A stretch of 64,000 nt of DNA from a virus. Location of the stretch: positions 10,670-74,669 of IMG/VR virus record IMGVR_UViG_3300045016_000140. One strand, given 5' to 3'. Under the pieces are notes generated by a model. That model did no database searches, was not told the origin of the DNA, and was given only the letters and a program-made list of their open reading frames with translations. The translations under genes were made by a program, and so were the position numbers. Every line of letters starts with the position of its first letter. The stretch's first letter is position 1. Shown here piece after piece: positions 5,866 to 64,000 of the stretch.

Positions 5866-8676
5866 ATGGCAGTGTATCTAAGCCCAGGCGTTTACACTCG
5901 TGAAATTGACCAGAGCGTTCTACCAAGTGCGCTTGGTGCGCTCAGGCCAGCACTCATCGGCACCGCCAAAAAAGGTCCGATGAATACTCCAACATTAATC
6001 ACCAATGCCCAGCAATTCATTGATACATTTGGTGAGCCAATAACCACCAGCTATCTCGGATATGCTGTATTACAATATCTTGAGGAAGGCACATCTTGCT
6101 GGGTGATGCGAATCGGTGTGGAGTATAAAGATAGCTGGCCAGCCGGACTAATCAGCGACACAATCGACACCAGCGGCGGGAGAAGCCAAGGCTGGGGCCG
6201 AATACCAGTATTCCGCGGCATAGATTACGGCACAATATACTTTCGACAAGTCACCACAGCTAACCCAGTCGTACTGCACACTTCCACAGTTTCCGACATA
6301 ACTTATACCGAAGCAACAGCACCATCATCCGGTCCCTCATGCATTGCGACCTTGATATTTAGTTCAACGGCGTATACCGGATGTGCCGACGCAGTGTATA
6401 CGCTTACAATCACTGGCTTGCCTACGTATGCTCCATTGGAAGGATCGACATATACGGTGACGGACCAGGATGGCGATGTCATTAAGACTGGCACGATCCA
6501 TGTAACGGGCGGCACCGGCACGATCCCAGATGACAGTGTGCCAATCGACATTGGTAGCGGACTTGTTTTCCAGATTAGAGTTAGCAATGGCGTGTCACTA
6601 GGAATAGGCGACACATTCACCTTTAGCGCTAGACCAGACAATAGAACCATGTCGGTGCTGGTTGAAGGCGTCGCTGGCAGTTATGTAATTGCGGCAGGAA
6701 CGTACACCACTGCCGCGTCGCTGGTCTTAGCGATGATAACCGCCACCGGTTCTGGCGCTGACATTACTCCCGTAGTTCTGACGAACAGCAGCGGCACGAG
6801 CGTTCCAGCTATTAGGACCTCGGCCGCCGGAAGATGGTTGCAGCTCACTGGCACATGTGCCTTCGCTACAGAGATGGGTGTCTCACAATATACATACGAT
6901 TTCCCACGAAGTTACATGATTGCCACCAATCCAGCCCCATATTCAATGACCACAAGTAACAATGAAATAGTGATGGACGTCATCAGCAATACTTCAACGC
7001 GGACATTTGATTTCTATGTCGCCACTGGCTCACATGTAACCGTCGCATCGCTGGTTGCTCAATTCAATGCCAACAACACATACAGCGGTGCAACATACTT
7101 TAACGCCGTCGAACTTACCATTCCTGGTGGGACTACCAGGATGGTGGTCACAACGGACGTGACCAATTACATGTCGCAACTCAAGATGCAGGCGACGTTC
7201 GTTTATGTCAAATGCCTTCGATTTACTGACGAAGTCGGCATTGATTACCCATTTACAAGTTTCTATCGTGCCTTCACGGATACTCGTCGCGTTTTACCAG
7301 AGGCAGGGCACACAACTCCGAGCACGCCGTACTCGTGCGAGCTTAACCCATTGAGCGCTCAATGTGCGGTTGACACAGCATACTTTGCGAACATAGTTGG
7401 ATGGGTTGTTGCCAAGTATGCTGGCACATGGTCGAGCAATTATTCCATCACCCTTGAGCCATATGTTGAAGGCACTGGCGATGTAGCCGGAAGATATAAG
7501 ATAACAGTCTACGATAATTATAACCAGCCAGTTGATGTAGTTAGCGATGTAACATTCATTTCTACCGACACAAGATATATCGGCAACGTTGTGAACGCAG
7601 GAAGTACGATTGGCGGTGTAAACGGCAACTCATATTACCAATGGGAGATGAGGCCAGCCGCGCTTATCGACACTTCCGACCCACGATATCCAGGCGCACT
7701 CTATGACAAAGCGTTCACCGGCGGAGCTAACGGCATACCGAGCATCTCGACGTATAGCTCAGAACTTGACAATGCCGTGATTGGTAACCCGGCTACTGGT
7801 TCAGGATTATATGCCCTGCAGAATCCTGAAGCGTATGACTTTAACCTCTTGATAATTCCGGGATTCACGAGCGGTGCAGTCATCGGCCAGGCTCTGCAGT
7901 TCTGTGAAAACCGTGGTGACGTGCTCTTCCTAGTTGACTCACCATATGGCTTGAAGCCACAACAGGTAATTGAATGGCACAATGGCATGCTAGTTAGCGA
8001 TCTAGCAGCAGCCATCAATAGTTCATATGGCGCATTATATTGGAGCTGGCTCAAGATATCTGACCAGTTCAACGGTGGAACAATATGGGTCCCGCCATCG
8101 GGTGCAGTTGGTGCGGTTTTTGCCCGTACGGCCAGGGTTGCTGAGCAATGGTTTGCTCCGGCTGGTGTGAATAGAGGTAGATTGCTTACGGCCATCGACA
8201 TCGAGTACAACCCATCGCTTGGCGAGCGCGATAACCTCTATGGGTCAGGAAACGCCGTTAACCCGATCACTAAGTTCACCCGTGATGGCATAATGATCTG
8301 GGGTCAGAGGACGCTGCAACGGACATCGTCTGCTCTTGATCGTGTGAACGTTAGAATGTTGCTGATCTATATTAAGGTTAACTTGCAGCGCGTCTTGCGA
8401 GCCTTTGTGTTTGAGCCTAACGACAGCATCACGCGAGCACAAATTACGGCAGTGATCAAACCATTCCTGGCGGATATTGCGGCAAGGCGAGGGTTGACAT
8501 GGTATCAAGTGATTTGCGATGTCACAAATAACACGCCCGAACGGATCGATCGAAACGAGTTATGGATTACCGTTCTCCTCCAGCCCACGCGGGCGGCAGA
8601 ATTCTTGGTCCTCAACCTTGTGGTGCTCAGGACTGGCGCAAGCGTGGGTACTTCCGAGACTGTTGCGACTGTGTAA
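5866..8676 (+). CDS. contractile tail sheath protein (T4 gp18-like)
   Basis: N-term YLSPGVYTREID and GTAKKGP; C-term WFAPAG.NRG, IWGQRTL, DRVNVR, FEPND, NNTPERIDRNEL; AGGAG SD. Confidence 0.95.
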   Translation: MAVYLSPGVYTREIDQSVLPSALGALRPALIGTAKKGPMNTPTLITNAQQFIDTFGEPITTSYLGYAVLQYLEEGTSCWVMRIGVEYKDSWPAGLISDTIDTSGGRSQGWGRIPVFRGIDYGTIYFRQVTTANPVVLHTSTVSDITYTEATAPSSGPSCIATLIFSSTAYTGCADAVYTLTITGLPTYAPLEGSTYTVTDQDGDVIKTGTIHVTGGTGTIPDDSVPIDIGSGLVFQIRVSNGVSLGIGDTFTFSARPDNRTMSVLVEGVAGSYVIAAGTYTTAASLVLAMITATGSGADITPVVLTNSSGTSVPAIRTSAAGRWLQLTGTCAFATEMGVSQYTYDFPRSYMIATNPAPYSMTTSNNEIVMDVISNTSTRTFDFYVATGSHVTVASLVAQFNANNTYSGATYFNAVELTIPGGTTRMVVTTDVTNYMSQLKMQATFVYVKCLRFTDEVGIDYPFTSFYRAFTDTRRVLPEAGHTTPSTPYSCELNPLSAQCAVDTAYFANIVGWVVAKYAGTWSSNYSITLEPYVEGTGDVAGRYKITVYDNYNQPVDVVSDVTFISTDTRYIGNVVNAGSTIGGVNGNSYYQWEMRPAALIDTSDPRYPGALYDKAFTGGANGIPSISTYSSELDNAVIGNPATGSGLYALQNPEAYDFNLLIIPGFTSGAVIGQALQFCENRGDVLFLVDSPYGLKPQQVIEWHNGMLVSDLAAAINSSYGALYWSWLKISDQFNGGTIWVPPSGAVGAVFARTARVAEQWFAPAGVNRGRLLTAIDIEYNPSLGERDNLYGSGNAVNPITKFTRDGIMIWGQRTLQRTSSALDRVNVRMLLIYIKVNLQRVLRAFVFEPNDSITRAQITAVIKPFLADIAARRGLTWYQVICDVTNNTPERIDRNELWITVLLQPTRAAEFLVLNLVVLRTGASVGTSETVATV

Positions 8677-8693
8677 AGACGTATTTAAATGAT

Positions 8694-10436
8694 ATGAATG
8701 AAACTTCAAACGCCCCACTAATTGATTTTAGTGGGGCGTTTTCATATCCGAAAACAACATGGGTGAATATCAAATGCGTGAAATGCGACATTGTGCAGTA
8801 TCGTAAGATAACATCTGTCCGTAGCAATCTTAAAAGGAATAGTAATCAATATATATGTCATAAGTGTGCCATCACAGATCCAGAATATGTTCAAAATAAT
8901 TTGATCAAACATCCTAAGACTGGTAGCAAATGGGATTCTAAGATAGATGTTGTCTGTTCTGGGTGTCAGAAGAAGTATAAGATTACTTATCGTGGGTATA
9001 TGCAAGCTGGCGGGAATGGGAAAGTCAGGTGTAGGTCTTGTGCAAATTCCGAGGCGCATGCTTCTGGGAAGTTTAATATATATGACGAGGATTTCAAGAA
9101 TAAGTTGAAGGAGAATAGTGAAAAGTTCTGGGACGAGAATAGGGGTAGGTGGCGGCAGAAGATGGGGCATATGTTTGACAGCGAAGAATATAAGAGATTA
9201 ATGAGTGAATATGGTAAGAAGCCGTGGTCTGACCCAATATATCGTGAGAAGATGTTGCAGTTATGCGATAACCCGGAACATAGAGCTATGATTAGTGAAC
9301 GATTTAAAAAGATGTGGGCAGACACTAAATTTCGCGATAGGATGATGAAACTATATGGCACTAGTGAATGGCGTAAGACAGTAAGTGATGCCGGAAAAAT
9401 TCCTTGGAGCAACCCAGAATTTAGGGCTATGAAGATTAGAACTGCTTCTGATGACGGGAAGAGAGCTTGGCTTGTCCCAGGTTTTCGTGAGAAGATGGCC
9501 ATTGTTCGATCTCAGCAGCCTAGATGTTCTAGTTTGCAGCTGACGTTATATTCTATTTTGGATGATTTAGGCGTTAAACATTATAGGGAGTATATGGATA
9601 AGCCAGCGGATAAGGAATGTATTATTGGGCCGTGGACGTTCGATAGTGTGGTCATTCGGCCTGGGCAGAAAGATTTATTAATTGATGTGAATGATGAGTA
9701 TTGGCATGGTAGTCCTAAGGTTATAGCCAAAGATGCGGCTAAGGCTTCTTATGTCGCCAATAATTTATCTCATAAGTATGAGCTAAAGTATTTGTGGGGT
9801 AACGATTTTATTCAGAAGGATAAGGTTGTTGAAACCATTAAATATTGGCTTGGCATCACTAAGATGCAGGCTATTGATTTTGATTTCAAGACAGTGGCGA
9901 TTAAGCCATCGCCGTCTAAGGATTATAAGCCGTTGCTGGCTAAGTATCATTATCTTCCGAATGCTGGTAGAGGTGGGATTGTATATGGTGGATATATCGG
10001 GGAGGTTTTAGTGTCTGCTTGCGTGTTTTCACCTCTTATTCGTCAAAATATTCATGATAAGCTTGGGTGTGCATATTCTGAGGCTTGCGAATTATCTAGG
10101 TTATGTGTTCATCCGATGTACCAGAAGCATAATTTTGCCTCTTGGTTTGTGAGTAGGTGCATTAAGTCATTGCCCAAGAAGTATAGAGTTGTTGTATCGT
10201 ATTGTGATACTACTTTTAATCATAACGGAGCTGTATATAAGGCTTGTAATTTTGAATATGCTGGTGAGATTAAGCCTGATTATTGGTATGTCGACGCTGA
10301 TGGTTGGACTATGCATAAGCGGACTTTATATGGCCGGGCTGTGAAGTTGAGGATATCTGAGGCTGATTTTGCCAAGAAGTATGGCTATATTAAGGTATAT
10401 GGTGGTAAGAAGTTGAGGTTTATTTATCGGAGATGA
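8694..10436 (+). CDS. fusion: Zn ribbons + W-x-D/N-P helical repeats + Vsr/DUF559-like nuclease domain + Mom-like acetyltransferase (start uncertain, alternative GTG about 8763)
   Basis: CxxC pairs; repeated W.DP.Y/W.NP.FR units; IGPWTFD...LIDVNDEYWHG; C-term YHYL, ELSRLC, ASWFVSRC, SYCD...HNGAVYKACNF. Confidence 0.75.
   Translation: MNETSNAPLIDFSGAFSYPKTTWVNIKCVKCDIVQYRKITSVRSNLKRNSNQYICHKCAITDPEYVQNNLIKHPKTGSKWDSKIDVVCSGCQKKYKITYRGYMQAGGNGKVRCRSCANSEAHASGKFNIYDEDFKNKLKENSEKFWDENRGRWRQKMGHMFDSEEYKRLMSEYGKKPWSDPIYREKMLQLCDNPEHRAMISERFKKMWADTKFRDRMMKLYGTSEWRKTVSDAGKIPWSNPEFRAMKIRTASDDGKRAWLVPGFREKMAIVRSQQPRCSSLQLTLYSILDDLGVKHYREYMDKPADKECIIGPWTFDSVVIRPGQKDLLIDVNDEYWHGSPKVIAKDAAKASYVANNLSHKYELKYLWGNDFIQKDKVVETIKYWLGITKMQAIDFDFKTVAIKPSPSKDYKPLLAKYHYLPNAGRGGIVYGGYIGEVLVSACVFSPLIRQNIHDKLGCAYSEACELSRLCVHPMYQKHNFASWFVSRCIKSLPKKYRVVVSYCDTTFNHNGAVYKACNFEYAGEIKPDYWYVDADGWTMHKRTLYGRAVKLRISEADFAKKYGYIKVYGGKKLRFIYRR
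8708..8742 (+). terminator. intrinsic terminator-like hairpin after the sheath gene
   Basis: 14-bp perfect stem AAACGCCCCACTAA / TTAGTGGGGCGTTT. Confidence 0.75.
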
Positions 10437-11129: not shown

Positions 11130-12538
11130 ATGAGACTCACCTCCCTATACCTCGAAGCCATAAACTATACATCGCACAAACCACAACTAGATTCACTAGC
11201 CAAACAATTTGGCAAAACCCCACAAGAAATAATTGTATTAGTAGAACCCATCACGGATGTTGTAAGATATGTAGAATGGATACTTAGACAACTCAAAACG
11301 CACATAATTAGACTCCCAGAAGACACAGATAGGATTAAACAACTATTAATAGATTTTGATCATTATAAATCTATAGGTTCAGCCAACATTAATAAAGATA
11401 TAGGATCCTATAAAACCATCCATGACCTAGAAACCGTAATCGATAAACTCAAAGGTGTAGATCTTAAAGGTCGGGCAGAAACACGCCAAGAGTATCGAGC
11501 GGGAACACAATGGGTCAACGAAAGCCAAAACTACAAAATTCTCAAAATCACAACACCCGAGGCTGCCGCCCACTACGCCACAAATACTAAATGGTGTACA
11601 AGCAAACTAGAGACAGCAAAAAATACCTTGAGAGAGGACCACTCTACATAATCTTTAAAAAATTAGACGGAAAACTTGAGAAACTTTACCAATACACACA
11701 TAATTATTCACGATTTATGGATATACTAGATAGGTCAATACGGCCAGATGAAGAAATACAGCAATTAATCAAACCACCGCTAAGCTCCGAACCAGTAATT
11801 CTAGTTGGATTTTGTGTGCTTATAGATTCTCGTTGGCTCGAGGCAGAATCAATCATAGCTAAAGACCCAATATCGGCATACTATTATGCTCTAGATATCT
11901 TAGAACGTCCCTGGCCAGAAGCAGAACCAATCATAGCTAAAAACCCAAAATGCGCACACCATTACGCTATGTATGTCTTGAAACGTTCCTGGCCAGAAGC
12001 AGAACCATACATAGCTCAGAATCCATTCTGGGCATACCATTATATTTCGGATGTCTTGAAACGTCCTTGGCCCGAAGCAGAACCAACCATAGCTCAAAAT
12101 CCAGAATGTGCATACCATTATGCTCAGAATATCTTGAAAGAGCGTTTCTCTGAAGCAGAATCAACTATAGCTCAAGACGCATACTTTGCATACCATTATG
12201 CCAAAGATATCTTGAAAGGACGTTTCCACGAAGCAGAACCATATATAGCCAAGGATCCGGAATGGGCGTACTGGTATGTCCGAGATGTCTTGAAACGTCC
12301 CTGGCCAGAAGCAGAACCATACATAGCTAAAGACCCAGAATGGGCATACTATTATGCTCAAGATGTCTTGAAACGTCCCTGGCCAGAAGCAGAACCATAC
12401 ATAGCTAAAGACCCAGAATGGGCATACTATTATGCTCAAGATGTCTTGAAACGTCCCTGGCCAGAAGCAGAACCAACCATAGCTAAAGATCTAAAATGTT
12501 GGACTCAATATAAACAACGTTTTAATATCGAAAATTAA
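11130..12538 (+). CDS. WCT-motif protein with nine 26-aa repeats, split by a -1 frameshift at 11618-11624
   Basis: Frame 0 ends ..TKWCTSKLETAK; -1 frame continues KYLERGPLYII; the same WCT..YL..GPLY motif is contiguous in the paralogue at 42958. Confidence 0.7.
11830..12500 (+). repeat. 78-bp (26-aa) coding tandem repeat, about 9 units
   Basis: Unit RPWPEAEPYIAKDPEWAYYYAQDVLK; the last two complete units are identical in protein sequence. Confidence 0.9.
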
Positions 12539-12587
12539 TCAAACCTAAATATATGAAACTCACCCCCTTATGCCTTGAAGCCATAAA

Positions 12588-19820: not shown

Positions 19821-19834
19821 GAATTATTATATTA

Positions 19835-19890
19835 TGTTTGAGGGTGTTTGAGGGTGTTTGAGGGTGTTTGAGGGTGTTTGAGGGTGTTTG
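19835..19890 (+). repeat. intergenic 10-bp tandem repeat AGGGTGTTTG, 5 copies plus a partial
   Basis: Perfect copies at 19841-19890. Confidence 0.95.
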
Positions 19891-19950
19891 GTAGCGTTTG
19901 TTTAAGGAGAATGCTGGAGTAATGTAAATAAAATATAGAGTGGGTGTTTT

Positions 19951-44115: not shown

Positions 44116-46674
44116 GTGGCTAATATTTTGCTTGAGAGAAAATTGTCGGTGCAGCCCGGAGACCTTATAGTTGTTCCCGGTCTCGAGCCAACGTCGGTAT
44201 TAACATCTCCTGTTCTGGATCAACAATTAGCTTTGGCAGGATTGCAGGGAAAATGTACTGTGCCGTTGGCTATGGCGTTGCAGGCTGTGCCTGGTTCTAG
44301 GGTTGAATTCTTTGAAAATACTGGTAGGTTTAATAAATTCTTTGTGTTACCGCCGGTGGATTGTGCTGGCGGGCATAGTATTGATTGGTATGGAGTGTTA
44401 AGAGATGTCGCGGTGACCGGCGTACTACCGATTTGGGAGAGTTCATCCTCATCCTATTCCAGTTCATTCTCGTCCTCCAGTTCGTCATTATCTTCCAATT
44501 CATCCTCGTTCTCGTCTAGTTCATCCTCCAGTTCATCATCTAGTTCATCCTTTAGCTCATCCTTATCTTCCAGTTCCTCGTCATCGAGCTCCAGTAGCAA
44601 ATCAAGTAGTAGTAGCAGTTCTAGTTCCAAGTCTAGTAGCTCTAGTAGTTCTAGTAGCTCTAGTAGCTCTAGTAGCTCTAGTAGCTCTAGTAGCTCTAGT
44701 AGTTCTAGTAGTCGATCCAGTGCTTCTAGCTCCAGTTCTAGCAAATCAAGCTCTAGTTCTAGTAGCTCTAGTAGCTCTAGTAGTTCTAGTAGCTCTAGTA
44801 GCTCTAGTAGTCGATCTAGTGTTTCTAGCTCCAGTTCTAGCGGTTCTAGTGTTTCTAGCTCCAGTTCTAGCAAATCAAGCTCTAGTTCCAGTAGCTCTAG
44901 TAAATCTAGTAGTTCCAGTAGTTCCAGTAGTTCCAGTAAATCTAGTTCGAGTTCAAGCAGCTTGAGTTCTAGTAGCTCTAGTAGCTCTAGTATCTCTAGT
45001 AGCTCTAGTAAATCAAGCAGTTCTAGTAGTTCTAGTAAATCAAGTTCGAGTTCAAGCTCTAAATCGAGCAGTTCCAGTAGCTCTAGCAAATCTAGCAGTT
45101 CAAGCAGTTTGAGTTCCAGTAGCTCTAGTAAATCAAGCAGTTCCAGTAGCTCTAGCAAATCTAGCAGTTCAAGCAGCTCGAGTGCATCCGGTGGAGGTGG
45201 ATGGACTGACATTTCGCCGCCCGTAGGCGCTGTGGTCATCTATGTGTCGTCAAGCCTGGGCGATGATGGTGACACTGGTGGCATCGCCGATCCTGTGGCA
45301 ACGATTGCTAAGGCGCTGACATTAGTCCGTGATGGCTACCCGGACCAGATTCTATTGAAGTGTGGGGACACATGGTCTGAGACCCTGGAAGATTGGGACC
45401 TCAGCGGGCAGGATGCCACACACAGGTTCGTGGTGGCGACCTATGGATCAGGGGATAGGCCGATCTTGGAATGTGGGACCAATGCTGCCGTGACTCGTGG
45501 GGCTAATGTTCACGACGTGGCGTTTGTCGGCCTAGATTTCTATGCAGATACACGCGATCGCACGGTGCCGGGCTACAGCAATAATGGGGCCGACGGAGGC
45601 ATCTATTGGCTTGGTAGCGCAACGAGGTTGTTGTTCGAGGACTGTGTAATCAGATGGTTCAAGGGCAACGCTATACAGGGCTACCCGACTACCTCCGATG
45701 TGGTCGCGGGCATCAGCTTCCGCCGTTGCATGTTCCTGGACATGTGGTGTTCCGATGCCCACTCGCAGGGTTTGTACATGGGTTATCCCGGTGATGGGAC
45801 TAGTGGCGGTCCAACGGACATCCTCATCGAGGAATGTCTATTTGATGGCTGTGGTTGGGCGTCCGACGCGTCGTTGCGATCGGCTTTCAATCATTCAATT
45901 TATTTAAACAATGCTTGCGGTCTTGACGACGCGATTGTCCGCAAGAATATTATCCTGCGTTCGTCTAGCCATGCCATGCAAGTCCGGGCCGGTGGAAGCA
46001 CGACTGACAACTTATGTGTAAGCAATGCTATCGGCATTCAAGTCGGAATTGGCGACGATCCTAATCCCGGAGGGGTTACGGGAACCATAACGGACAATGT
46101 GATCTTGGACGGGGAGGACATTGGTGCTACCCCGTTGGCATTTGGAATCGTCGGAGGCAACATCAGCACTCTATCTGCCACTGGCAATATCATCGCTCAT
46201 GATCTATCCGCCGACCCTTACGGCCGGGGGTTTGATTTGGGCGATTCAATCGGTACAGTCTCAGATAACATAGTGTATGACTGGCGCAACCCAGTGCAGC
46301 ACTACGGAGTCCCGGATGACATCGAGTACAGCAGCAATGAGTTCCAGGAAGTTGCCGCTGGCGAGGCTTTGGTATGGTTGGACAGCACCCAGGGCGGTGC
46401 GACGTTCGTTGGGAATAACTACTACTCGCCGTCGCTGCAGTGGTACGTCAACGGCAGTGTTCTAGATCAGAGCGATTGGGAGTTGATCGATACTACGGGG
46501 ACGTTCGTGGAGCGTGCATATGTGAATCCGGATATAAGTCTGGCTGATGTTTTGGGTGTGGCGGATACTGCTGCCGCTGCTGCGCTGTTGCGTTCACGTG
46601 GTCGGGGTGAATGGGATACGGATCAGACCGCTGTAGCGATTAATGCGGTGATCCGGGCTGGGTTCGTATATTGA
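44116..46674 (+). CDS. Ser-rich stalk plus right-handed beta-helix (pectin-lyase-like) domain, candidate virion fibre/depolymerase
   Basis: About 250-residue poly-Ser tract; C-term IYVSSS.GDD, TIAKA, LLKCGDTW, YGSGDRP and repeated NII/NVI beta-helix rungs. Confidence 0.7.
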   Translation: MANILLERKLSVQPGDLIVVPGLEPTSVLTSPVLDQQLALAGLQGKCTVPLAMALQAVPGSRVEFFENTGRFNKFFVLPPVDCAGGHSIDWYGVLRDVAVTGVLPIWESSSSSYSSSFSSSSSSLSSNSSSFSSSSSSSSSSSSSFSSSLSSSSSSSSSSSKSSSSSSSSSKSSSSSSSSSSSSSSSSSSSSSSSSSSSRSSASSSSSSKSSSSSSSSSSSSSSSSSSSSSSRSSVSSSSSSGSSVSSSSSSKSSSSSSSSSKSSSSSSSSSSSKSSSSSSSLSSSSSSSSSISSSSSKSSSSSSSSKSSSSSSSKSSSSSSSSKSSSSSSLSSSSSSKSSSSSSSSKSSSSSSSSASGGGGWTDISPPVGAVVIYVSSSLGDDGDTGGIADPVATIAKALTLVRDGYPDQILLKCGDTWSETLEDWDLSGQDATHRFVVATYGSGDRPILECGTNAAVTRGANVHDVAFVGLDFYADTRDRTVPGYSNNGADGGIYWLGSATRLLFEDCVIRWFKGNAIQGYPTTSDVVAGISFRRCMFLDMWCSDAHSQGLYMGYPGDGTSGGPTDILIEECLFDGCGWASDASLRSAFNHSIYLNNACGLDDAIVRKNIILRSSSHAMQVRAGGSTTDNLCVSNAIGIQVGIGDDPNPGGVTGTITDNVILDGEDIGATPLAFGIVGGNISTLSATGNIIAHDLSADPYGRGFDLGDSIGTVSDNIVYDWRNPVQHYGVPDDIEYSSNEFQEVAAGEALVWLDSTQGGATFVGNNYYSPSLQWYVNGSVLDQSDWELIDTTGTFVERAYVNPDISLADVLGVADTAAAAALLRSRGRGEWDTDQTAVAINAVIRAGFVY

Positions 46675-52800: not shown

Positions 52801-53115
52801 GAAGAGAAATGCGTGGATATTTGCAAGATCTGCGATTGTGACCCATGCAAATGTTGCAAGAAATGCGAATGCCATCCATGCAAATGCTGTGGGAAATGCA
52901 AATGTTATCCGTGTGAATGTCCGCAAGAGGGCAAACTTCCGGCAGCTTTAAAGAAGTACCAATTCAAGAAGGGCAAGGTTGGGAGCGCAGCTGAGAAACC
53001 AGCTGAGAAACCAGCTGAGAAACCAGCTGAGAAACCAACTGAGAAACCAGCTGAGAAACCAGCCAAGAAACCAGCTGGGAAACCAGCCAAGAAACCAGCT
53101 GAGAAACCAGCCTAG
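49882..53115 (+). CDS. large acidic head-associated protein (prohead core-like) with Pro/Ala, Glu/Ala, Cys-rich and PAEK repeat segments
   Basis: Between portal and protease; CAAATATA motif and AGGAG SD; many I/L-x-E sites. Confidence 0.6.
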   Translation: MRNQGNEGRPATFGSVAMDSRKLLSLINSSAQSQVKIFEEAVQKLGQSQNADWRLVALQTNKVIFEDVKTSQYYTADHIREKGGRINITNINSITITDTEKAPIFEAVCQQLVNAIETGDPSQIEKVYDKMAANRFRGQAVPASGYVRTKDGVVRKVQINEGVVHPNISELALRIVEHIVDRVNIAEGKIEGSFRTSDINLDIPELLVRRAIAGNMRKVAQNAYINENFQKIIKGIAGYISADKLEKAVECATGLLTESQEFCLLDRGQIGTLIGDTLAACGVFNEALANDVATLVYKTNLKVNHALIIEAWKKTAQKAANSIMLENVAILEESKDFESDYDEFLDAIFEGAEDNRRQAALNGLKNLQNEVADDPKLAEEVNLLIQKLGGKNSDSNDLMEAEDLLSKVAADVNTSNTLNEFDQMPGSEAAQEPVVPAAPSPAAPASISTGAPGGSVTNITINTAAGAGTAAAPVAPVAPVAPPAPAAPPAPVLPPPPGGEEEPLDLDKLLSGEEESEEGEKEEGEKEGEKKEEIPESKEKIGEPMTEDVEKARAFFDAIGIDKDGSFTFKGEPVVAGSITEAEDDERVDSSEYHIPEGLEELDINHEYGPVSEASVSPQQVASAAKNMKQIAGKFGRRNKPTLADATLAASEEIEKIAGHETPEQKSAKKDEIISQIAKADAGIKEDQRKTIFHRKMRGLKRSSILALLKEGKFSWLGKSGDGVLGEFKGVRFVFDHAEPAVLLSEDGSIELDIPAELVDGAKYFSEISDDEAEADGFIEWLDKNVTQLAPISNDEAKAIDEAVAELTVNPGDEVRIKVGSGDETASVKPVVEPVAGTGLDASPKPPPPPATPAEQEPAIVDASPLPDDEVSAADMPASEPGEIDRDIPPWEGSEAAEAEETEEAGEEAAEEEEAAEAEEEEAEEGEAEEEAAEAEEEEAAEAEEEAAEAEEEATEKEVEESKAEEIKPIIEKEEKCVDICKICDCDPCKCCKKCECHPCKCCGKCKCYPCECPQEGKLPAALKKYQFKKGKVGSAAEKPAEKPAEKPAEKPTEKPAEKPAKKPAGKPAKKPAEKPA

Positions 53116-53199
53116 AAGACAGCTAAGATTAAAAATCCAGCAACTTATGGCTTCCAGTGATACGCCTGTATTGTGTCGGTATATTGATCCTGGAGATTT

Positions 53200-57902: not shown

Positions 57903-58139
57903 ATGGTAAAACTCAGTGGGATAACAACCCTAGGTGCTGGCTTCAAAGGCTTAAAGCCAGTTAATAAGAAATGTGGCTTAGGGAAGCATGCGGGTGGTTC
58001 GGCTAATAGGCCCGCGAAAGCTGGAAACGCAAAAGCGGTTAAATTCCCGACTGCCAAATCAGCATTTAAGACCATAGGTGGACGTGGCCTAGCAAAAGGC
58101 CGAGTAATGGTGGCTAGTAGAGTTGGCATGGGACGGTAA
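57903..58139 (+). CDS. small highly basic (K/R/G/A) protein
   Basis: AGGAG SD, CAAATATA motif upstream, no acidic residues in 78 aa. Confidence 0.6.
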   Translation: MVKLSGITTLGAGFKGLKPVNKKCGLGKHAGGSANRPAKAGNAKAVKFPTAKSAFKTIGGRGLAKGRVMVASRVGMGR

Positions 58140-58206
58140 ACGGAGTAATCTCCTAATCCCATACTAACCGTGTACATCTGAACTCAAAAATACTTAGGAG
58201 CAGACA

Positions 58207-58893
58207 ATGGACAAAATCAAAACGTTGCTCGAGCAAGCAGGCCACTCCAAGGAGCTGGTCGAAAAGATCTTAGCGGCCTTCGTTGAGAAGGAAGCTGAAA
58301 TCCGCAAGAATGTCATCGACGAATTCAAAGCCCGCAATGAACAGGCCAAGAAAATATGCATTGAGGAAGTTGAATCATACAAGAAAGAACTTGCTCGCAA
58401 GGTGAGAATCTGGTGCGAATCACGCGCCCAGAAAGTTGAACAGCAAATAGCGAAACAAGTGGCCATTAGAGAGTCGGCTGCTGAAACCAAGCTGGCCAAA
58501 ATCACAGCCCTCCTAGAGGGCATCCAGCCAAATGGTGACAGCCAAGCAGACCTCCAGGCCTTGAAGATGCAACTTGACAACCTCAAGTTGCAGGTCAAGA
58601 CGCTCACCGAGCAGCGTCAACAGGCAGTCGAGAAAGCCAACAAGGCTAACGAGATTGCCGAGAAAGCCCTCAAGAAGAATAGAGCATTGGAATCCATGGT
58701 TGCTGATTCCAAGCCTATCCCTGAGGCAAAAGAGGACGAGAAAGCTGAGAAAGACGAGAAAGACGAAAAGCCAGCTGAGTCAGCAACCACTCGGATGGTG
58801 TCTGAAAACACCATCAAAAAGCCAGCTGCACCCAAGCCCCAGGTCGGTCCTGGCGGCAACTTCAGCATCGAAGCCATCGCAGACGCGATGTAA
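58207..58893 (+). CDS. prohead scaffolding protein (gp22-like)
   Basis: Coiled coil directly upstream of the MCP; AGGAG SD; CAAAAATA motif. Confidence 0.7.
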   Translation: MDKIKTLLEQAGHSKELVEKILAAFVEKEAEIRKNVIDEFKARNEQAKKICIEEVESYKKELARKVRIWCESRAQKVEQQIAKQVAIRESAAETKLAKITALLEGIQPNGDSQADLQALKMQLDNLKLQVKTLTEQRQQAVEKANKANEIAEKALKKNRALESMVADSKPIPEAKEDEKAEKDEKDEKPAESATTRMVSENTIKKPAAPKPQVGPGGNFSIEAIADAM

Positions 58894-58906
58894 TTGAGAG
58901 AAAACA

Positions 58907-60460
58907 ATGCACGTGAAACCAATCACTGAATCGAAAGACGCGACCCTCCAAGCGTTGGAAGGTCACAAGAACGGAATGATCCGGAGATGGAGTAAAGTGC
59001 TTGCCAAGTGCACTGAGGTCCCCCAAAAGAAATGGGGACTCATGGCCACGCTGTTCGAGAACCAGCACAAGCACATGGATCCGGCGAACCGGTCAATGTT
59101 GACTGAAGACGTGACCACGACTAACAACATTGCCGACTTCACCCGATTCGCCCTCCCGCTCATCCGCAAGAGCTACTCCAAGCTCATCGCCGACAACATC
59201 GTTGGCGTGCAGCCGATGAGCCAGCCCGCCAGCCTCGTATTTTACATCCGATACCGCTACGCCCTCAATAAGGGCCAGACGGTGGCCGGAACGCAGATCA
59301 TGCGTCAAAACACATCTGCCGCATTTGCACGGCAGAACGGCTGGGCACTAGACCCCTACTATTCCAGCCAGTACGTACGCGATGAAGCCCTCACCATCGG
59401 TACCGCATCAGGCGGCGGTGTGGACCTCACCGGCACATTGGCCCACAGGCCAATCCTGGCTGGCACGGTGGTTGTTAACCTATACGAGAGCACTAGGTTC
59501 AACCAACAGTGCGACTACAATCGTCCACTAATTCAAGTTTCGTTTGGCGCTGACGGTCACGTCGATACCTGGGTCCTGGACGATAGCCAGACAAGCGCTG
59601 GAACCTCGGGTATGACGGTTGATACTACGGCCAGCTTCTTCAACACGGCCACTGGCGCAGTGGATGTGAACATCGACCCAGGGTCGGTGACGATCACCAG
59701 CGCCAACTATACTGCCACGGTCAGCTATGAGTACGACCTGGAAGCCAACCCATTCCAGCCTGAGCTGACCCTCAGCATCGACTCGGACTCGGTTGCGGCC
59801 ACAACTCGTAAGCTCAAGACATCTTGGTCGCTTGAAGCTGCCCAGGACCTCAAGGCAGTTCACAACCTCGATGCCGAGCAGACCATGACCGACGTCATGG
59901 CCGACGAGATGGTTGCTGAAATTGACCGTGAAATCATTAACGACCTGATCATCGGCGCTGCAGTCCGTGCGACTCACAACTTTGCCACCGCTGCGGGTGC
60001 CAGTGTGAACTTCACGGATCGCAACATTGCCTTGCTTTACAAGGCCCTCGAAGTCGCGAATATTATCCACCGGTTGACCCTTCGTGGCCCAGCCAACTGG
60101 ATAGTTACTTCGAGCGATATTAGTTCCAAGTTTGAGCAGCTAAACGATTTCCGTGCCAGCGATGCCCTCCAAAAGGAAGGTGTGGACATCGGCATCATGA
60201 ATGCTGGTACAATTCAAGGTAAGATTAAGCTGCACAAGGATCCTTTATTCCCCAACTGCAAGATCCTAATGGGATACAAGGGGAACAGCATCCTCGACAC
60301 AGGTTACATTTATTGCCCATATATCCCACTGCTCAGCACGCCGACCGTGCTGGATCCCAATAGCTTTGTGCCTAATAAGGGCATTATGTGCAGATATGGG
60401 AAGAAACTTGTGGAAGATGGAGGATTATTCTATGGGACTATCACCGTATCGTCCCTATAA
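58907..60460 (+). CDS. major capsid protein (T4 gp23-like)
   Basis: LFENQ, LPLIRK, IVGVQPMSQPASLVFY.RY.Y, TRKLKTSWSLEAAQDLKAVHNLDAE, EIDREII, GYKG, YCPYIPL, KGIM.RY. Confidence 0.97.
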   Translation: MHVKPITESKDATLQALEGHKNGMIRRWSKVLAKCTEVPQKKWGLMATLFENQHKHMDPANRSMLTEDVTTTNNIADFTRFALPLIRKSYSKLIADNIVGVQPMSQPASLVFYIRYRYALNKGQTVAGTQIMRQNTSAAFARQNGWALDPYYSSQYVRDEALTIGTASGGGVDLTGTLAHRPILAGTVVVNLYESTRFNQQCDYNRPLIQVSFGADGHVDTWVLDDSQTSAGTSGMTVDTTASFFNTATGAVDVNIDPGSVTITSANYTATVSYEYDLEANPFQPELTLSIDSDSVAATTRKLKTSWSLEAAQDLKAVHNLDAEQTMTDVMADEMVAEIDREIINDLIIGAAVRATHNFATAAGASVNFTDRNIALLYKALEVANIIHRLTLRGPANWIVTSSDISSKFEQLNDFRASDALQKEGVDIGIMNAGTIQGKIKLHKDPLFPNCKILMGYKGNSILDTGYIYCPYIPLLSTPTVLDPNSFVPNKGIMCRYGKKLVEDGGLFYGTITVSSL

Positions 60461-60511
60461 TATTTTGTTGACGATTAGTAGTTGATTGACAGTTGATTGA
60501 CTAGAATTGAG

Positions 60512-60539
60512 AAACCCCACCAGAAATGGTGGGGTTTTT
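60512..60539 (+). terminator. intrinsic terminator after the MCP
   Basis: AAACCCCACCA-GAAA-TGGTGGGGTTTTT. Confidence 0.85.
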
Positions 60540-60597
60540 AATATGTATATGCACAATATTTTAGTGTATTTAAACATTATAACTTTTGGGAGCAAAA

Positions 60598-62667
60598 ATG
60601 AAACGTAGGCAGTTTAATGTTAATGTTGTACGCGATTTAGTTGAAAATCAAGGTGTTTCGTTGAGTAAAGTGGCGGCACAACTTGGTACTGTTGTGTCTG
60701 TTATATCTAGTTATTGTAAAAGACATAATATTATAAGTAAACATATGGATTCCATGCAACAAAAATGTCTTCCGATCACGTCTATAAAGGTTAGATATGA
60801 TGCTGGCGAGAGTATTCATAGTATGGCAAAAGAATTTTCTGCACCGGCTGCTAGGATTAAACGGCAATTATTGAAGAATTATCCTGGCATGGAATTTCGG
60901 ACATTTGATCAGGTATGTGAATCTAATAGGCCATCTGCTTTGAACAATATAGAAGAATTCAAGAAATTGGCCGATAAGCATTCGTTTAGAGAAATCGCAA
61001 AATTGTTAAATGTTCGTGCCAATACTGTCTGTCATATCGCTAGGAAATTTGGAGTATCTTCTAAATTCGAGTCAATTTCGGCAGAGATTCCTGATGATAT
61101 ATTATATGAATTATATGAAAATGCTAGTATGTCATCTTCACAAATATCTAAATTATATAATCAGCCAGTTGGAGTAATATTACGCAAGTTAAGGAATGCC
61201 GATATTAAAATTCGTGAAAGCGGTGGTAAGACTAGACCATCGAAGCATGTGGCATTGAACGATGCAGCTTGGTTATATGAACAATATGTGGTTTTAAAGA
61301 AAAGTATGTCTGACATTAGAGATATTGTTGGAACGAATGTCGGGAACATTTCGCATCATCTTAAAAAATATGGTATCCCTATTCGCACGAAGGATGAGGT
61401 ATATGGGCGTTTGAGAGAATCTGGCGTTAATTCTACTTGTTTGACTGTGAAGACAAAGTGGGGCTTGTTTCATTGCGATAGTAAATTAGAAGCTGATTAT
61501 CTTAGAGCTATTGAATTGTCTGCCGGGAGTGTGCAAAGGAATGTTGAGCCATTGATGTGCGGTGGTTTGTTATATTATCCTGATTTTATTGTTGATGGGT
61601 CGTATGTTGAAGTTAAACCCAAAGAGGGGACTTTATATCCTGGCGTTAATAGGCAACGTTTAACTAGACAATTTTTGATTGCCAAGAAAAACAATATTGA
61701 TTTAAAGATTTGGTGTGATAAAGGCTATTATGATTATGTTTTGGAGGATGTCGATAAATATTATTGTTTAAATTGGAAGTTAATATTTAATGATGCTGCA
61801 GAATGTTCAAAATGGCTTTATGAATATGGTTTTCACGGTGTTTTATACCCGATAAACGATTTAATACATGGCATTAAAAACAGCATTGTTTGTAAACAGG
61901 GTTACGAGCTAAATGCTAATGTCCAGAATGAGTTTGCTTTAAGACTAATTAGACACTTTTCACAGCATTATTACTATTCTACGCATAAAGGATATAATTC
62001 AGTGGCTGATGCATGGTCTGAAGGTAATTATAATATATTATTGAATGCTATTAGAAAATTATGGGAGAGTAAACGGGAGATTAATTTATATGGATTAATA
62101 TCAGTAATACACAAACACTTTAAAGATTATGCAACTGTTTCGATATTTAAGCCATGGATCGCCAGGACCATTTATAATAAATATATCCCAAAAGGAGGTA
62201 CGGTCATAGATCCATGTATGGGTTGGGGTGGGAGATTGATAGGTAGCATTGGTTTGCCGATAAATTATATTGGTTATGACATCAACCCATTAGTTATTGA
62301 GTCACACCAGAAATTAACTAAATTTCTCGGTGGTCATTTGTTAAATGCTCCACAATTTAGTATTAATGACTCATCACTAGTTAATTTTAGTAAGGCTGAT
62401 TTGTTGTTTACATCCCCACCGTACGACGACACTGAATTATATTATGGCATTAACTCTTATGGCATAATATCTGAACCAATTTACAATAATATTTTTGCGA
62501 AATTTGATGGTATAGTTGTGTTAAATGTGCCGAAGCGACATTCAAAATTATGTGTTGACATTGCTTCGAAATATAATTATAAGTTAATTGAGGAATTGCA
62601 GATGAAGACTTCTTCGTTTATGGGCCGCGAAAAGACGTATGAGCCAATTCTTGTATTTAACAGATAG
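60598..62667 (+). CDS. multi-HTH + PD-(D/E)XK (TnsA-like) nuclease + DNA methyltransferase fusion
   Basis: About five HTH-like units; DSKLEADY...YYPDFIVDGSYVEVKP; FKP..A..IY, DPCMGWGGRL, GYDIN, FTSPPY; GGGAG SD. Confidence 0.8.
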   Translation: MKRRQFNVNVVRDLVENQGVSLSKVAAQLGTVVSVISSYCKRHNIISKHMDSMQQKCLPITSIKVRYDAGESIHSMAKEFSAPAARIKRQLLKNYPGMEFRTFDQVCESNRPSALNNIEEFKKLADKHSFREIAKLLNVRANTVCHIARKFGVSSKFESISAEIPDDILYELYENASMSSSQISKLYNQPVGVILRKLRNADIKIRESGGKTRPSKHVALNDAAWLYEQYVVLKKSMSDIRDIVGTNVGNISHHLKKYGIPIRTKDEVYGRLRESGVNSTCLTVKTKWGLFHCDSKLEADYLRAIELSAGSVQRNVEPLMCGGLLYYPDFIVDGSYVEVKPKEGTLYPGVNRQRLTRQFLIAKKNNIDLKIWCDKGYYDYVLEDVDKYYCLNWKLIFNDAAECSKWLYEYGFHGVLYPINDLIHGIKNSIVCKQGYELNANVQNEFALRLIRHFSQHYYYSTHKGYNSVADAWSEGNYNILLNAIRKLWESKREINLYGLISVIHKHFKDYATVSIFKPWIARTIYNKYIPKGGTVIDPCMGWGGRLIGSIGLPINYIGYDINPLVIESHQKLTKFLGGHLLNAPQFSINDSSLVNFSKADLLFTSPPYDDTELYYGINSYGIISEPIYNNIFAKFDGIVVLNVPKRHSKLCVDIASKYNYKLIEELQMKTSSFMGREKTYEPILVFNR

Positions 62668-62790
62668 TGCCTATAAATTTATGACCGAAGAATCTATATT
62701 GGTGCTAATTTAATTCGTGAGAGGATTATTCTATGGGACTATCACCGTATCGTCCCTGTAATATTTTGTTGAGGCCGTTCTGAAGGCTCC

Positions 62791-62824
62791 AAAAGCCCAT
62801 ACATGAAAGTGTATGGGCTTTTTT
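62791..62824 (+). terminator. intrinsic terminator after the second MCP-end copy
   Basis: AAAAGCCCATACAT-GAAA-GTGTATGGGCTTTTTT. Confidence 0.85.
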
Positions 62825-62869
62825 AATGTATTTGAATGGCAAGAAATTAACCAACATTTTAGCGAATTT

Positions 62870-63622
62870 ATGGTCAAAGAACCAATAAAATATTGGACTA
62901 AATCTCGTGCTAAATTAACGCCAGAAAAACGATATAGAATTAATCAATATTATTGTAATAGCTGGCGAACATGGATTACAAGAAAAGTGTATTGCGCTAT
63001 CCATGAGGATTCGCGATCCGGTAGACTTGCATCAAACATATGCGTGTCATATATTATGAAAATGCATAACGATAATCAATGTTGTGCAATTTCTAAAACT
63101 AAATTAACGCATGATAAATCACTATACTCATTATCTATAGATAGAATAGATAATACTATTGGGCACATTAAAGAAAATGTGCAGCTTGTTAGCATGGCAA
63201 TTAATTTGGCTAAGAATAGGCATACTGATTTGGATGTGCGTGAGTTAATAGATAATATATGTACGCCAATTTTCAGTCCAGTAAAATTGTCTAGGGATTA
63301 TGCTTCTACATGTGTTAGAAATGCAATTGCTTTTGACATTCGAAAGCATCGTTTGCATAATATTAATACTGATTATGTTTTACAATTGTATGCGAGGCAG
63401 GGTGGTATATGTGCTTTATCTGGCATTAAACTGGCCTGTTATGCGCATCCAATGTTTAGCATGTCAATAGATAGAATAGATAATGCTATCGGGCATATTG
63501 AGGGTAATGTTAGATTAATTTGTAAATCATTAAATAGAGTTAGGGGTCTGAGGCCGGATTCGGAAGTTCTAAAGTGGTTGAATGATGTTAGGAGAGTCAA
63601 TGGATACGAAATTGTTGTGTGA
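62870..63622 (+). CDS. tandem two-domain His-Me finger (HNH-like) endonuclease (start uncertain; open from 62813)
   Basis: Twice CA(I/L)S...L...S(L/M)SIDRIDN.IGHI..NV.L....N. Confidence 0.75.
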   Translation: MVKEPIKYWTKSRAKLTPEKRYRINQYYCNSWRTWITRKVYCAIHEDSRSGRLASNICVSYIMKMHNDNQCCAISKTKLTHDKSLYSLSIDRIDNTIGHIKENVQLVSMAINLAKNRHTDLDVRELIDNICTPIFSPVKLSRDYASTCVRNAIAFDIRKHRLHNINTDYVLQLYARQGGICALSGIKLACYAHPMFSMSIDRIDNAIGHIEGNVRLICKSLNRVRGLRPDSEVLKWLNDVRRVNGYEIVV

Positions 63623-64000
63623 CGAATATACATCTGGCAAGACTATATCACAAATATCTAAAAGATATGGAATATCCATGGCCAATCTAAGTAGGTTATT
63701 TAGAAAGCAAGGCGTTAAACGTAAAAAATATGAATTAGACAAAGATTATTTTGAATTGCATAGAGGTTTATCAAATAGGCAGATTAGTGAGGCCACTGGC
63801 ATTAGGCTTGGTCGCGTTAAGCATTTACGATATATCGCCTATAACGGGCAAAAGAAATCAAGTGGTGATTTTACGAATTTAGTTCCAAAGGTTAACAAAG
63901 ATTTAATCGATAAAGATTGGATATATACAAAATATGTCGTTGAGAAATTAGGCGCGCCTGCAATAGCTAAAATATTGGCTGTTAAATGTAGCGACATTTA
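63600..64000 (+). CDS. multi-HTH protein truncated by window end, similar to the N-terminus of the 60598 fusion
   Basis: Manual translation MDTKLLCDEYTSGKTISQISKRYGIS...LIDKDWIYTKYVVEKLGAPAIAKIL; compare LNDAAWLYEQYVVLKKS; GGAG SD; absent from the ORF track because it has no stop. Confidence 0.7.
   Translation, partial: MDTKLLCDEYTSGKTISQISKRYGISMANLSRLFRKQGVKRKKYELDKDYFELHRGLSNRQISEATGIRLGRVKHLRYIAYNGQKKSSGDFTNLVPKVNKDLIDKDWIYTKYVVEKLGAPAIAKILAVKCSDI

Follow-up and report, generated by a model that had tools for sequence, protein, structure and literature searches.

The window analysed here comprises 64,000 nt of a 74,669-nt viral contig and ends where the contig ends. Its source is an uncultured lake jumbo phage. 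Towards the right end, the gene of a Gp23-type major capsid protein (MCP) is arranged as gene core, tail copy, terminator, nuclease gene and second tail copy, with further genes downstream (Table 1). The closest MCPs (67–74% amino acid identity) come from uncultured phages of 250–400 kb. The GC content of the capsid gene is 0.54, compared to 0.34 downstream, and its GC3 drops to 0.39 over the final 18 codons. The ORF is complete without splicing, and a search for group I introns in positions 58000–64000 returned no intron family at E-values up to 1. Between the MCP gene and the following 689-aa ORF lie the stop codon, a strong terminator, a 126-nt spacer and a separate ribosome-binding site.

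Table 1 Features behind and including the capsid gene, in window coordinates.
Feature	Position	Strand	Description
MCP gene, Gp23 type, 517 aa	58907–60460	+	Pfam PF07068, E 6e-76
Repeat copy 1	60420–60471	+	last 41 nt of the capsid gene (13 codons and stop) plus 11 nt; in-frame tail
Terminator 1	60511–60539	+	13-bp stem, GAAA loop, T run; RNA fold -30.3 kcal/mol, z -6.9
689-aa fusion gene	60598–62667	+	HTH array, PD-(D/E)XK, SPPY methyltransferase
Cassette tail, 53 nt	62668–62720	+	TATAAAT motif, 10-codon mini-ORF; ends at non-homologous junction with copy 2
Repeat copy 2	62721–62772	+	putatively displaced capsid tail, non-coding; in-frame TAA 9 nt upstream
Terminator 2	62791–62825	+	13–14-bp stem, GAAA loop, T run; RNA fold -26.6 kcal/mol, z -5.9
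Gene with two EndoVII/HNH-like repeats	62870–63622	+	phrog_3322, 5e-26; phrog_1035 (endonuclease VII), 6.5e-23; two stretches each
HTH-array gene, cut by contig end	63600–64000	+	Pfam/PHROG HTH matches

The two copies of the 52-nt direct repeat are spaced by 2301 nt and agree at 51 of 52 positions. The lone mismatch (A at 60457, G at 62758) is a synonymous CTA/CTG difference at Leu517. The similarity ends abruptly at both borders. In the window there are two instances of the 37-nt exact core, whereas 100 shuffles gave none, and this is the only long, dispersed, near-perfect repeat of the window. Both terminators were found by RNA folding; a simple consensus scan detected neither. An initial annotation of this DNA had described the repeat, its spacing and its single mismatch, as well as a distinct GAAA-loop terminator and nuclease gene(s) behind each copy, and our coordinates, alignment, folding and domain searches agree with it. 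Its proposal that each cassette restores the capsid C-terminus does not hold: copy 1 alone does so, while copy 2 lies behind an in-frame stop codon. Judged by reading frame, copy 1 is the functional capsid tail and copy 2 a non-coding relic. The initial annotation had also proposed to search for further copies beyond the window; in the whole contig, the core again occurs only twice. Since the copies are nearly identical, the window itself gives no sign which of them is foreign.

The 689-aa protein begins with an array of about five HTH modules (residues 1–265, HTH profile matches), followed by a TnsA-like PD-(D/E)XK nuclease domain (~280–395), a helical linker and a class-I SAM amino-methyltransferase (~500–689) with the motifs DPCMGWGG and SPPY. 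In the AF2 model (pLDDT 85.8), the chain stops ~80 residues past SPPY and contains no separate target-recognition domain. A Foldseek search with this model retrieves methyltransferases and the type IIG enzyme BpuSI (rank 5), and the nuclease part reaches a TM score of 0.71 to TnsA_N clusters in an Atlas structure comparison. The nuclease domain belongs to a family used by homing endonucleases, with its predicted catalytic residues intact. Residues E298, D329, E338 and K340 are invariant in 15 homologs, and both active sites, nuclease and methyltransferase, are conserved in all of them. The cassette is rich in AT. In natural populations, the gene also occurs as a nonsense allele, S129*. The 53-nt cassette tail has no counterpart behind the homologous genes of relatives.

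The gene behind copy 2, with two EndoVII/HNH-like repeats, has no Pfam match and contains an internal 47-nt repeat. Its longest ORF starts at 62813, with an ATG that sits inside the descending arm of terminator 2; homologs align from about 62885. These homologs lie directly behind the MCP gene in the related loci L010, L012/13, L078, L080 and L023. The truncated HTH-array gene is a weak paralog of the fusion (24% identity to residues 129–251, E 0.003). As already observed in the initial annotation, no integrase is visible; the ORFs of 56–64 kb include no integrase or recombinase family.

We compared the locus with about 160 related jumbo-phage loci (94 distinct loci for tail copies, 77 for architectures). 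Nuclease cassettes behind the capsid gene occur in 15 architectures, which have changed at least 40 times along the MCP tree. The nucleases are of the HNH, PD-(D/E)XK or LAGLIDADG type, often fused to methyltransferase or Mom modifiers. The PD-(D/E)XK module accounts for 10 changes in 10 rows and LAGLIDADG for 8 in 8. In one presence/absence pair, with an MCP nucleotide identity of 94%, L077 has lost the cassette kept by L074 and L076; all that is left of the HNH gene are 12 codons. This sequence comparison supports the site behind the capsid gene as a hot spot, a recurrent cassette entry point with fast turnover of its contents. The initial annotation had proposed to look for empty sites and different cassette numbers in relatives; the L074/L076–L077 pair differs by presence or absence of the cassette. 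Its reading of the MCP 3' end as an attachment or homing site stands as far as recurrent entry is concerned; nothing points to site-specific attachment. What is seen is consistent with break repair or homologous recombination.

In relatives, ORF689-type genes begin +110 to +180 past the capsid stop (L008, L011, L038, L073, L127, L156), and HNH261-type genes begin at +67 to +250 (L012, L078, L010, L023). Both units of the window lie at the spacing usual in relatives, which gives the arrangement the appearance of two alternative alleles placed one behind the other. To the right of ORF689-type genes, each relative has a different context. No relative with MCP identity above 74% was found, and therefore no true empty site or donor is known for the event in the window.

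Scars of this kind recur. Diverged second copies of the capsid tail are found behind cassettes in three other lineages: L004/L003/L083, L044 and L092. The copy in L004/L003/L083 lies at +2057 and starts at the same Gly-Leu codon as the repeat of the window. It is identical at 20 of 26 nt, and the encoded peptide is unchanged; since all six differences are synonymous, the copy came from another capsid allele. In L092, the tail, the terminator and the start of the next gene recur at +3209, while L044 has a tail remnant between two nuclease genes. The stop codon and terminator are duplicated in L149 and L157. Three of the four lineages have the left border of the tail copy at -39, -41 or -47, and the repeat lengths vary by lineage (26, 29, 52 and 136 nt). 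Coding-tail copies are present in only 4 of the 94 distinct loci; about 90 have cassettes without duplication. The stacking of units made of capsid tail, terminator and nuclease, as proposed earlier, thus extends to at least three other lineages and does not describe most relatives. The last 38 coding nt of the window are closer to MCP tails that precede an ORF689-type gene than to the remaining tails (0.645 vs 0.562, p 1.6e-5); over the 300 nt before them, the same groups do not differ (0.716 vs 0.717). An all-pairs test of tail sequence against cassette type was weak (p about 0.03), and the link is null for HNH, LAGLIDADG and Mom cassettes.

The 2301-nt unit is probably a free-standing cassette of the homing-endonuclease type that was copied into the capsid 3' end by break repair or recombination. 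It would comprise copy 1, terminator 1, the nuclease-methyltransferase gene and the 53-nt tail. The donor would have been a closely related, co-infecting phage with a different gene set behind its capsid gene. We infer that cleavage by a nuclease, near 40 nt ahead of the capsid stop, set off the event, and that the 689-aa protein was the nuclease responsible. Double-strand-break repair or recombination would then have copied the cassette into the capsid-gene 3' end. The incoming DNA would bring a terminator together with the final 13 codons and their stop, which keeps the capsid protein intact, and the resident tail (copy 2), terminator and HNH cassette would be displaced downstream. The right join at 62720/62721 is non-homologous, and the left join is seamless because it falls within shared capsid sequence. 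Since copy 2 and the capsid gene body provide homology to related alleles on both sides, further spread of the unit by ordinary homing would be possible, as would its loss if one repeat recombined with the other. We count the conserved E/D/ExK residues, the HTH array, the AT-rich cassette and the natural nonsense allele in support of homing. The geometry of the repeat, the usual spacing of both units, the turnover at the hot spot, the loss in L077, the recurring tail copies and the resemblance of the window's tail to those before ORF689-type genes also speak for it; the lack of a close relative, the near identity of the two copies, the weak all-pairs test and the small number of loci with coding-tail copies speak against it. 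The gene also shares features of the homing type: a modular DNA-binding domain, the position directly behind the MCP gene and sporadic presence in relatives. It counts against homing that the rebuilt capsid target is not recoded, unlike in the fungal cases considered below. The fused methyltransferase would presumably shield this target.

A product identical to a homing insertion would also be expected from a nuclease-independent unequal (illegitimate) crossover between co-infecting strains, with the nuclease genes as bystanders and the repeat as a plain recombination scar. Both units resemble complete native alleles, the right junction has no clear microhomology and the right contexts of ORF689-type genes vary as described, all of which would suit such an origin, as would the heavy recombination among T4-type phages (PMC2988022). 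Random events, however, would have no preference for the capsid-tail spot, but the tail copies adjoin nuclease cassettes in four lineages, with three left borders within 8 nt, and one of them stems from a foreign allele. We consider this origin rather unlikely. Another view, compatible with homing, is that the 689-aa protein acts mainly as a single-chain, restriction-modification-like weapon against unmodified competitor or host DNA, with the phage's own genome methylated and with location and repeat secondary. The combination of PD-(D/E)XK and amino-methyltransferase in one chain, the match to BpuSI, the conservation of both active sites and further nuclease-modifier fusions in the same genome and clade are in its favor. 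The unrecoded capsid target also speaks for it, since another form of self-protection would be needed. The protein nevertheless lacks a C-terminal target-recognition domain and carries an HTH array as found on homing endonucleases; the gene is sporadic on the MCP tree, and its nonsense allele is tolerated in nature. We regard the weapon as a possible, although not the probable, main role.

A dedicated site-specific stacking system, integron-like or based on an attachment site, in which a recombinase adds cassettes at the capsid tail, appears very improbable. Direct repeats do bracket the cassette, and units are stacked in several lineages, but there is no integrase or recombinase among the ORFs of 56–64 kb, the borders and lengths of the repeats vary by lineage, most cassettes have no repeat and the repeats contain no inverted-repeat core. 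It is even harder to credit an assembly artefact in which the capsid tail, common to two strains whose cassettes differ, led to their being merged. The contig stops 1.2 kb past copy 2, k=31 unitigs cannot resolve the path order and contigs are thin near copy 1 in three runs. On the other hand, the Logan unitigs (k=31) of four lake-water runs end precisely at the 37-nt core, which is the behavior expected of a true repeat, and the linear order accounts for every in- and out-edge of the repeat node. The cassette tail is physically linked to copy 2; in run X5, a contig (60875–62845) extends from the cassette across copy 2 into terminator 2. The 52-nt repeat is shorter than one read. In addition, a 76.5-kb contig, recorded in several sources, encodes both the 689-aa and the 269-aa proteins.

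The initial annotation did not recognise the target-duplicating form as described, but precedents exist in fungal mobile endonuclease ORFs (mORFs) and in one-sided homing of T4. Fungal mitochondrial mORFs form gene hybrids with a C-terminal duplication, in atp6 of Allomyces macrogynus and in atp6, atp9, cox2 and nad3 of Glomus (PMC3630166). As in these, the window shows the order of gene core, inserted C-terminus, endonuclease gene and displaced native C-terminus, with the host protein intact. The exclusively synonymous differences between the two tail copies of L004 are likewise expected of an other-allele origin. Unlike the fungal examples, the nuclease gene of the window is not in phase with the host gene, from which the stop, terminator and its own ribosome-binding site separate it; the host gene is a phage capsid gene, the copies are 98% identical and not recoded, and the nuclease, instead of being LAGLIDADG or GIY-YIG, is a PD-(D/E)XK enzyme with a fused methyltransferase. 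One-sided homing in T4 proceeds by illegitimate double-strand-break repair (PMC2988022; Parker, Belisle and Belfort 1999, as cited there). T4 segD, between genes 23 and 24, resembles the window in placing a nuclease gene directly behind a Gp23-type capsid gene. The T4 seg/mob genes are also intergenic and sporadic, with hairpins at the gene start, and one-sided homology leaves junctions without homology (PMC2988022). They differ in being GIY-YIG or HNH genes without modifier domains, and segD is on the opposite strand. We found no report of a duplicated capsid tail for the seg/mob genes, nor a description of this layout for phages.

If homing is correct, the arrangement shows how a selfish nuclease gene that uses neither intron nor intein can enter the coding end of a phage gene that is both essential and highly expressed, by means of a spare C-terminus and terminator. 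Fungal mitochondria have arrived at the same solution, so that this would be a case of convergence. The likely cut site, ~40 nt ahead of the capsid stop, is marked by the displaced tail, and with it the specificity of an uncharacterised nuclease family becomes open to direct testing. Judging from the nuclease-modifier fusions at the hot spot, homing endonucleases may be linked to single-chain restriction-modification enzymes. Such fusions may shape competition among co-infecting jumbo phages, and they could yield long-site nucleases that come with their own protecting methylase. More tentatively, large T4-like phages might harbor a class of self-protecting homing cassettes, although we would not expect this on balance. 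Such cassettes would join an HTH-array nuclease (PD-(D/E)XK, HNH or LAGLIDADG) to a fused modifier (amino-methyltransferase or Mom), target the last ~40 nt of the capsid gene, use a replacement tail with terminator as left arm and the displaced tail as right arm, and stack serially, with the modifier shielding the unrecoded target.

Other known nucleases share parts of the arrangement. Barth, Dunham and Seed 2023 (PMC10448857) describe HEG islands near essential phage genes. Similar to the window, these are enriched beside capsid, terminase and RNR genes and display DNA-binding repeat arrays, domain swapping and genetic-exchange boundaries. They differ in being made up of T5orf172 and IPA-HNH genes; the paper does not use the word methyltransferase, and we found no duplicated host-gene ends described there. 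Type IIG and IIC enzymes (BpuSI, MmeI) have an N-terminal PD-(D/E)XK domain followed by a gamma-order amino-methyltransferase in one polypeptide, as does the 689-aa protein, which carries the N-terminal HTH array instead of their C-terminal target-recognition domain. Its gene differs further in that it belongs to a phage, adjoins a structural gene and has a sporadic distribution. The gene after copy 2 resembles F-CphI and other EndoVII-motif homing endonucleases of cyanophages (PMC6083498) in its PHROG endonuclease VII match and its free-standing position beside a conserved gene. Unlike F-CphI, it consists of two tandem putative nuclease repeats, with the motif SIDRIDN..GH in place of DHDH.

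The last codons of the major capsid protein (MCP) gene are present twice in the window. As claimed in the initial annotation, a 52-nt repeat recurs 2301 nt downstream with 51 of 52 nucleotides identical, and the CTA/CTG mismatch lies in the final MCP codon and is synonymous. Copy 1 consists of the final 13 codons of the MCP, the stop codon and 11 nt. Outside the 52 nt, the similarity between the copies ends abruptly on both sides. The 37-nt exact core occurs twice in the window and is absent from shuffles, the repeat is likewise found twice in the whole 74,669-nt contig, and it is the sole long dispersed repeat within the window. Each copy is followed by its own terminator, a 13-bp GAAA-loop hairpin with a T run that differs between the two (z -6.9 and -5.9), again as first described. 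Copy 2 lies outside any gene, with an in-frame TAA 9 nt upstream. The GC content changes from 0.54 in the MCP gene to 0.34 downstream. A GC3 drop in the capsid tail was set aside as evidence because the tail of at least one relative (locus L004) drops similarly, as counted by eye. Two junction features were also considered, microhomology at 62720/62721 and a motif common to the window and L004, and both are too short to count.

A T run with a GTATTTGA-like motif follows both terminators of the window. It is also observed behind the MCP terminator and second terminators in many relatives (L149, L092, L157, L137), and could serve as a signal where each cassette begins, a cassette being the nuclease gene or genes behind the MCP gene. 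For the HNH gene behind copy 2, the longest ORF begins at an ATG within the descending arm of terminator 2 (62813-62825). Read-through transcripts would hide this start codon at 62813, and homologs suggest that the ATG at 62870 is the real start.

We used Logan k=31 contigs of four lake-water sequencing runs to check the assembly. The contigs break exactly at the 37-nt core, and all four edges of the repeat node agree with the linear order. A single contig of run X5 spans the cassette, copy 2 and terminator 2, and a 76.5-kb contig, recorded in several sources and reaching about 1.9 kb past the window, holds both the 689-aa and the 269-aa protein. The repeat is also shorter than the read length. 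Its unitig depth is 42, compared to about 80 expected from the sum of in-flows; since no arrangement gives 42, we treat this value as technical. An assembly artefact is extremely improbable as the source of the repeat. In runs X3, X5 and X6, the Logan contigs stop or thin over window positions 60100-60875, an interval running from the MCP 3' end through copy 1 to codon 90 of the cassette gene, with both flanks covered. Run X1 carries a T for G at 60399 (G498V). The thinning and the variant may reflect strain microdiversity at the junction.

The window is the final 64 kb of a linear IMG/VR contig from lake-water metagenomes that is about 20% complete by estimate, and both share the same end. 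The best GenBank tblastn match of the Gp23-type MCP is found in a 595-kb uncultured phage (39.6% identity). The MCPs of about 160 loci in IMG/VR and JGI metagenomes share 66-74% identity with the window MCP, and many of these loci lie on 250-400 kb contigs. With no close GenBank phage and this set of metagenome loci, the phage belongs to a T4-like jumbo-phage clade that is uncultured. The 50,697 phage records searched gave no megablast match to 58900-64000, and a 26-mer from the repeat was not found in IMG/VR. As the nearest MCPs are only 74% identical, the phage records, IMG/VR and metagenomes searched contain no empty site or donor allele for the insertion in the window.

The gene behind copy 1 encodes a 689-aa fusion protein. 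Residues 1-265 form about five HTH modules, followed by a TnsA-like PD-(D/E)XK domain, in which E298, D329 and E338-x-K340 are invariant in 15 homologs. A helical linker leads to a class-I SAM methyltransferase domain that contains the motifs DPCMGWGG and SPPY; the latter (motif IV) suggests N4-cytosine methylation. The chain stops about 80 residues past SPPY and thus has no separate target-recognition domain, so that targeting presumably falls to the HTH array. Pfam alone yields only sub-threshold HTH and N6_N4_Mtase matches, GenBank phages match only the methyltransferase part, and the PADLOC defence models gave no informative match. In an exhaustive HMMER search, only 39 cluster representatives reached E 1e-30, some 20 of which are full length, and Foldseek places the type IIG enzyme BpuSI at rank 5 for the model of the protein. 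A nonsense allele, S129* (C>A at 60983, codon 129), is fixed in the run X3 contig, and ENA and JGI assemblies record it as split proteins of 128 and 554 aa. Being a natural allele, it indicates that the gene is dispensable in nature. Copy 2 is followed by a gene for a putative nuclease with two EndoVII/HNH-like repeats (phrog_3322, phrog_1035 and structural-atlas lookalikes) and by a second HTH array, the final gene, truncated by the contig end. The initial assignment of nuclease genes to each copy is in line with these matches.

In most of the roughly 160 related loci, the MCP gene is followed first by a gene with an HNH, PD-(D/E)XK or LAGLIDADG module, often fused to the methyltransferase core seen in the window or to a Mom domain. 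A comparison of cassette content across relatives, as proposed earlier, reveals varying gene sets: where at least 2.6 kb of downstream sequence is available (77 distinct loci), 15 architectures occur, and the MCP tree, a quick one with many weak branches, requires 40 changes or more. On this tree, the PD-(D/E)XK module changes 10 times in 10 rows and LAGLIDADG 8 times in 8, the scattered pattern typical of mobile genes. Full-length homologs of the 689-aa protein stand directly behind the MCP in L008, L011, L038, L073, L127 and L156. The same position is taken by homologs of the HNH gene in L010, L012/13, L023, L078 and L080, where a homolog of the 689-aa gene (ORF689-type) comes next. Since both gene types occur directly behind MCPs, each half of the window layout looks like a complete native allele. 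The order of the two types is permuted between phages. L077 has lost an island of about 1.9 kb that is present in L074 and L076 (94% MCP DNA identity), with the first 12 HNH-gene codons remaining.

A nucleotide screen of 80 relatives detected no other exact repeats of at least 16 nt. Diverged tail copies were found by protein-level, blastn and PSSM screens. In L004 (identical to L003 and L083), 26 nt at +2057, behind a LAGLIDADG-methyltransferase gene, encode GLYYGVVTV, the MCP-tail peptide, and have a PSSM score far above the reverse-strand control. The copy is identical at 20 of 26 positions, and all six differences are at synonymous third positions. A local duplicate decaying neutrally would have changed at other codon positions too, so that this codon pattern identifies the copy as derived from a different MCP allele. 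L092 has a second copy of about 136 nt at +3209, downstream of a Mom fusion and a C5 methylase, that includes the tail, the terminator and the beginning of the following gene. In L044, a LAGLIDADG gene and a Mom fusion flank a tail remnant, and the stop codon and terminator are repeated in both L149 and L157. The left borders at -41 (window), -39 (L004) and -47 (L092) all fall within the conserved E-D-G-G-L codons.

The final 38 coding nt of the window MCP are closer to the tails of MCPs with an ORF689-type gene behind them than to other tails (0.645 vs 0.562, p 1.6e-5); the 300 nt preceding the tail have no bias towards such loci. An all-pairs test of tail against ORF689-type cassette is weak (p ~0.03) and is null for the other cassette types, giving no general link between capsid tail and nuclease type. 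At most, these results hint that tail and cassette travel together.

Gp23-like matches 5-7 kb downstream in relatives were rejected as tail copies; the match in L149 (14706-15092) is a 128-aa ORF with an N-terminal Gp23 motif, 50% identical to MCP residues 85-132. A reading of such ORFs as gp24-like vertex genes was withdrawn. Similarly placed MCP-like matches in short ORFs are present in L006, L012/13, L066 and L080. These ORFs may derive from the front part of the capsid gene, either as fragments or as small paralogs.

The window contains, in a phage capsid gene and at a hot spot of the clade, a nuclease cassette that carries a capsid C-terminus and encodes a nuclease-methyltransferase fusion; it resembles the mobile endonuclease ORFs (mORFs) of fungal mitochondria. 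The data fit acquisition by recombination at a break about 40 nt before the MCP stop codon. The left end would pair through MCP homology, the copied tract would run from the tail through the terminator into the nuclease gene, and the right end would be joined to the resident tail without homology. Fungal mORF hybrids (PMC3630166) have the same geometry, but the copies in the window are not recoded, so that the capsid-tail target is restored in full. Should the 689-aa nuclease cut at this target, the carrier genome would need protection, for which the fused methyltransferase is the obvious candidate. As a rival to homing, the 689-aa protein may be a restriction-modification-like weapon against competitors, a reading that in part overlaps with it.

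The initial annotation viewed the MCP 3' end as an attachment or homing site with stacked cassettes. This interpretation is supported in part: the site is indeed a cassette hot spot. No recombinase was found among the ORFs of 56-64 kb, in agreement with the reported absence of an integrase, and repeat lengths and borders vary by lineage, which makes an attachment-site system unlikely. No intron RNA or Rfam family was found in 58000-64000. T4 one-sided homing (PMC2988022) has the same geometry as the homing-type insertion proposed here. In T4, a nuclease gene likewise follows the capsid gene: segD (GIY-YIG) lies immediately after gene 23. Islands of homing endonuclease genes (HEGs) close to capsid genes are documented (PMC10448857). 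The form was initially thought to be undescribed; this holds for phages in the literature searched, but the geometry itself is known from fungal mORFs and T4 one-sided homing.

Elsewhere on the contig, the 580-aa ORF behind the tail sheath gene looks like a second nuclease-modifier-type fusion adjoining a structural gene; no copy of the sheath-gene tail is found behind it. A LAGLIDADG gene and a possible PurZ gene adjoin each other in the contig bases upstream of the window (L164). The window also contains four long tandem repeats.

Features of the contig (window positions unless prefixed with L164)
Feature	Position	Strand	Description
Tail sheath gene	5866-8676		directly before the 580-aa ORF
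580-aa ORF	8694-10433	+	C-terminal Mom domain PF25680, E 1.5e-19
Tandem repeat	11750-12580		in-frame 78-nt unit x8
Tandem repeat	19825-19904		10-nt unit TGTTTGAGGG x6, intergenic array
Tandem repeat	44547-45200		in-frame Ser-rich 9-nt unit
Tandem repeat	52950-53150		in-frame 12-nt EKPA-type unit
MCP ORF	58907-60460		Gp23-type, Pfam E 6e-76
Copy 1	60420-60471		52-nt repeat
T run + motif	60535-60556		follows terminator 1
689-aa ORF	60598-62667		HTH array, PD-(D/E)XK, methyltransferase
Copy 2	62721-62772		52-nt repeat
T run + motif	62819-62838		follows terminator 2
536-aa LAGLIDADG protein	L164:786-2393	-	Pfam: LAGLIDADG only, C-terminal half without match
Adenylosuccinate-synthetase-like gene	L164:2463-3734	+	possible PurZ; adjoins the LAGLIDADG gene
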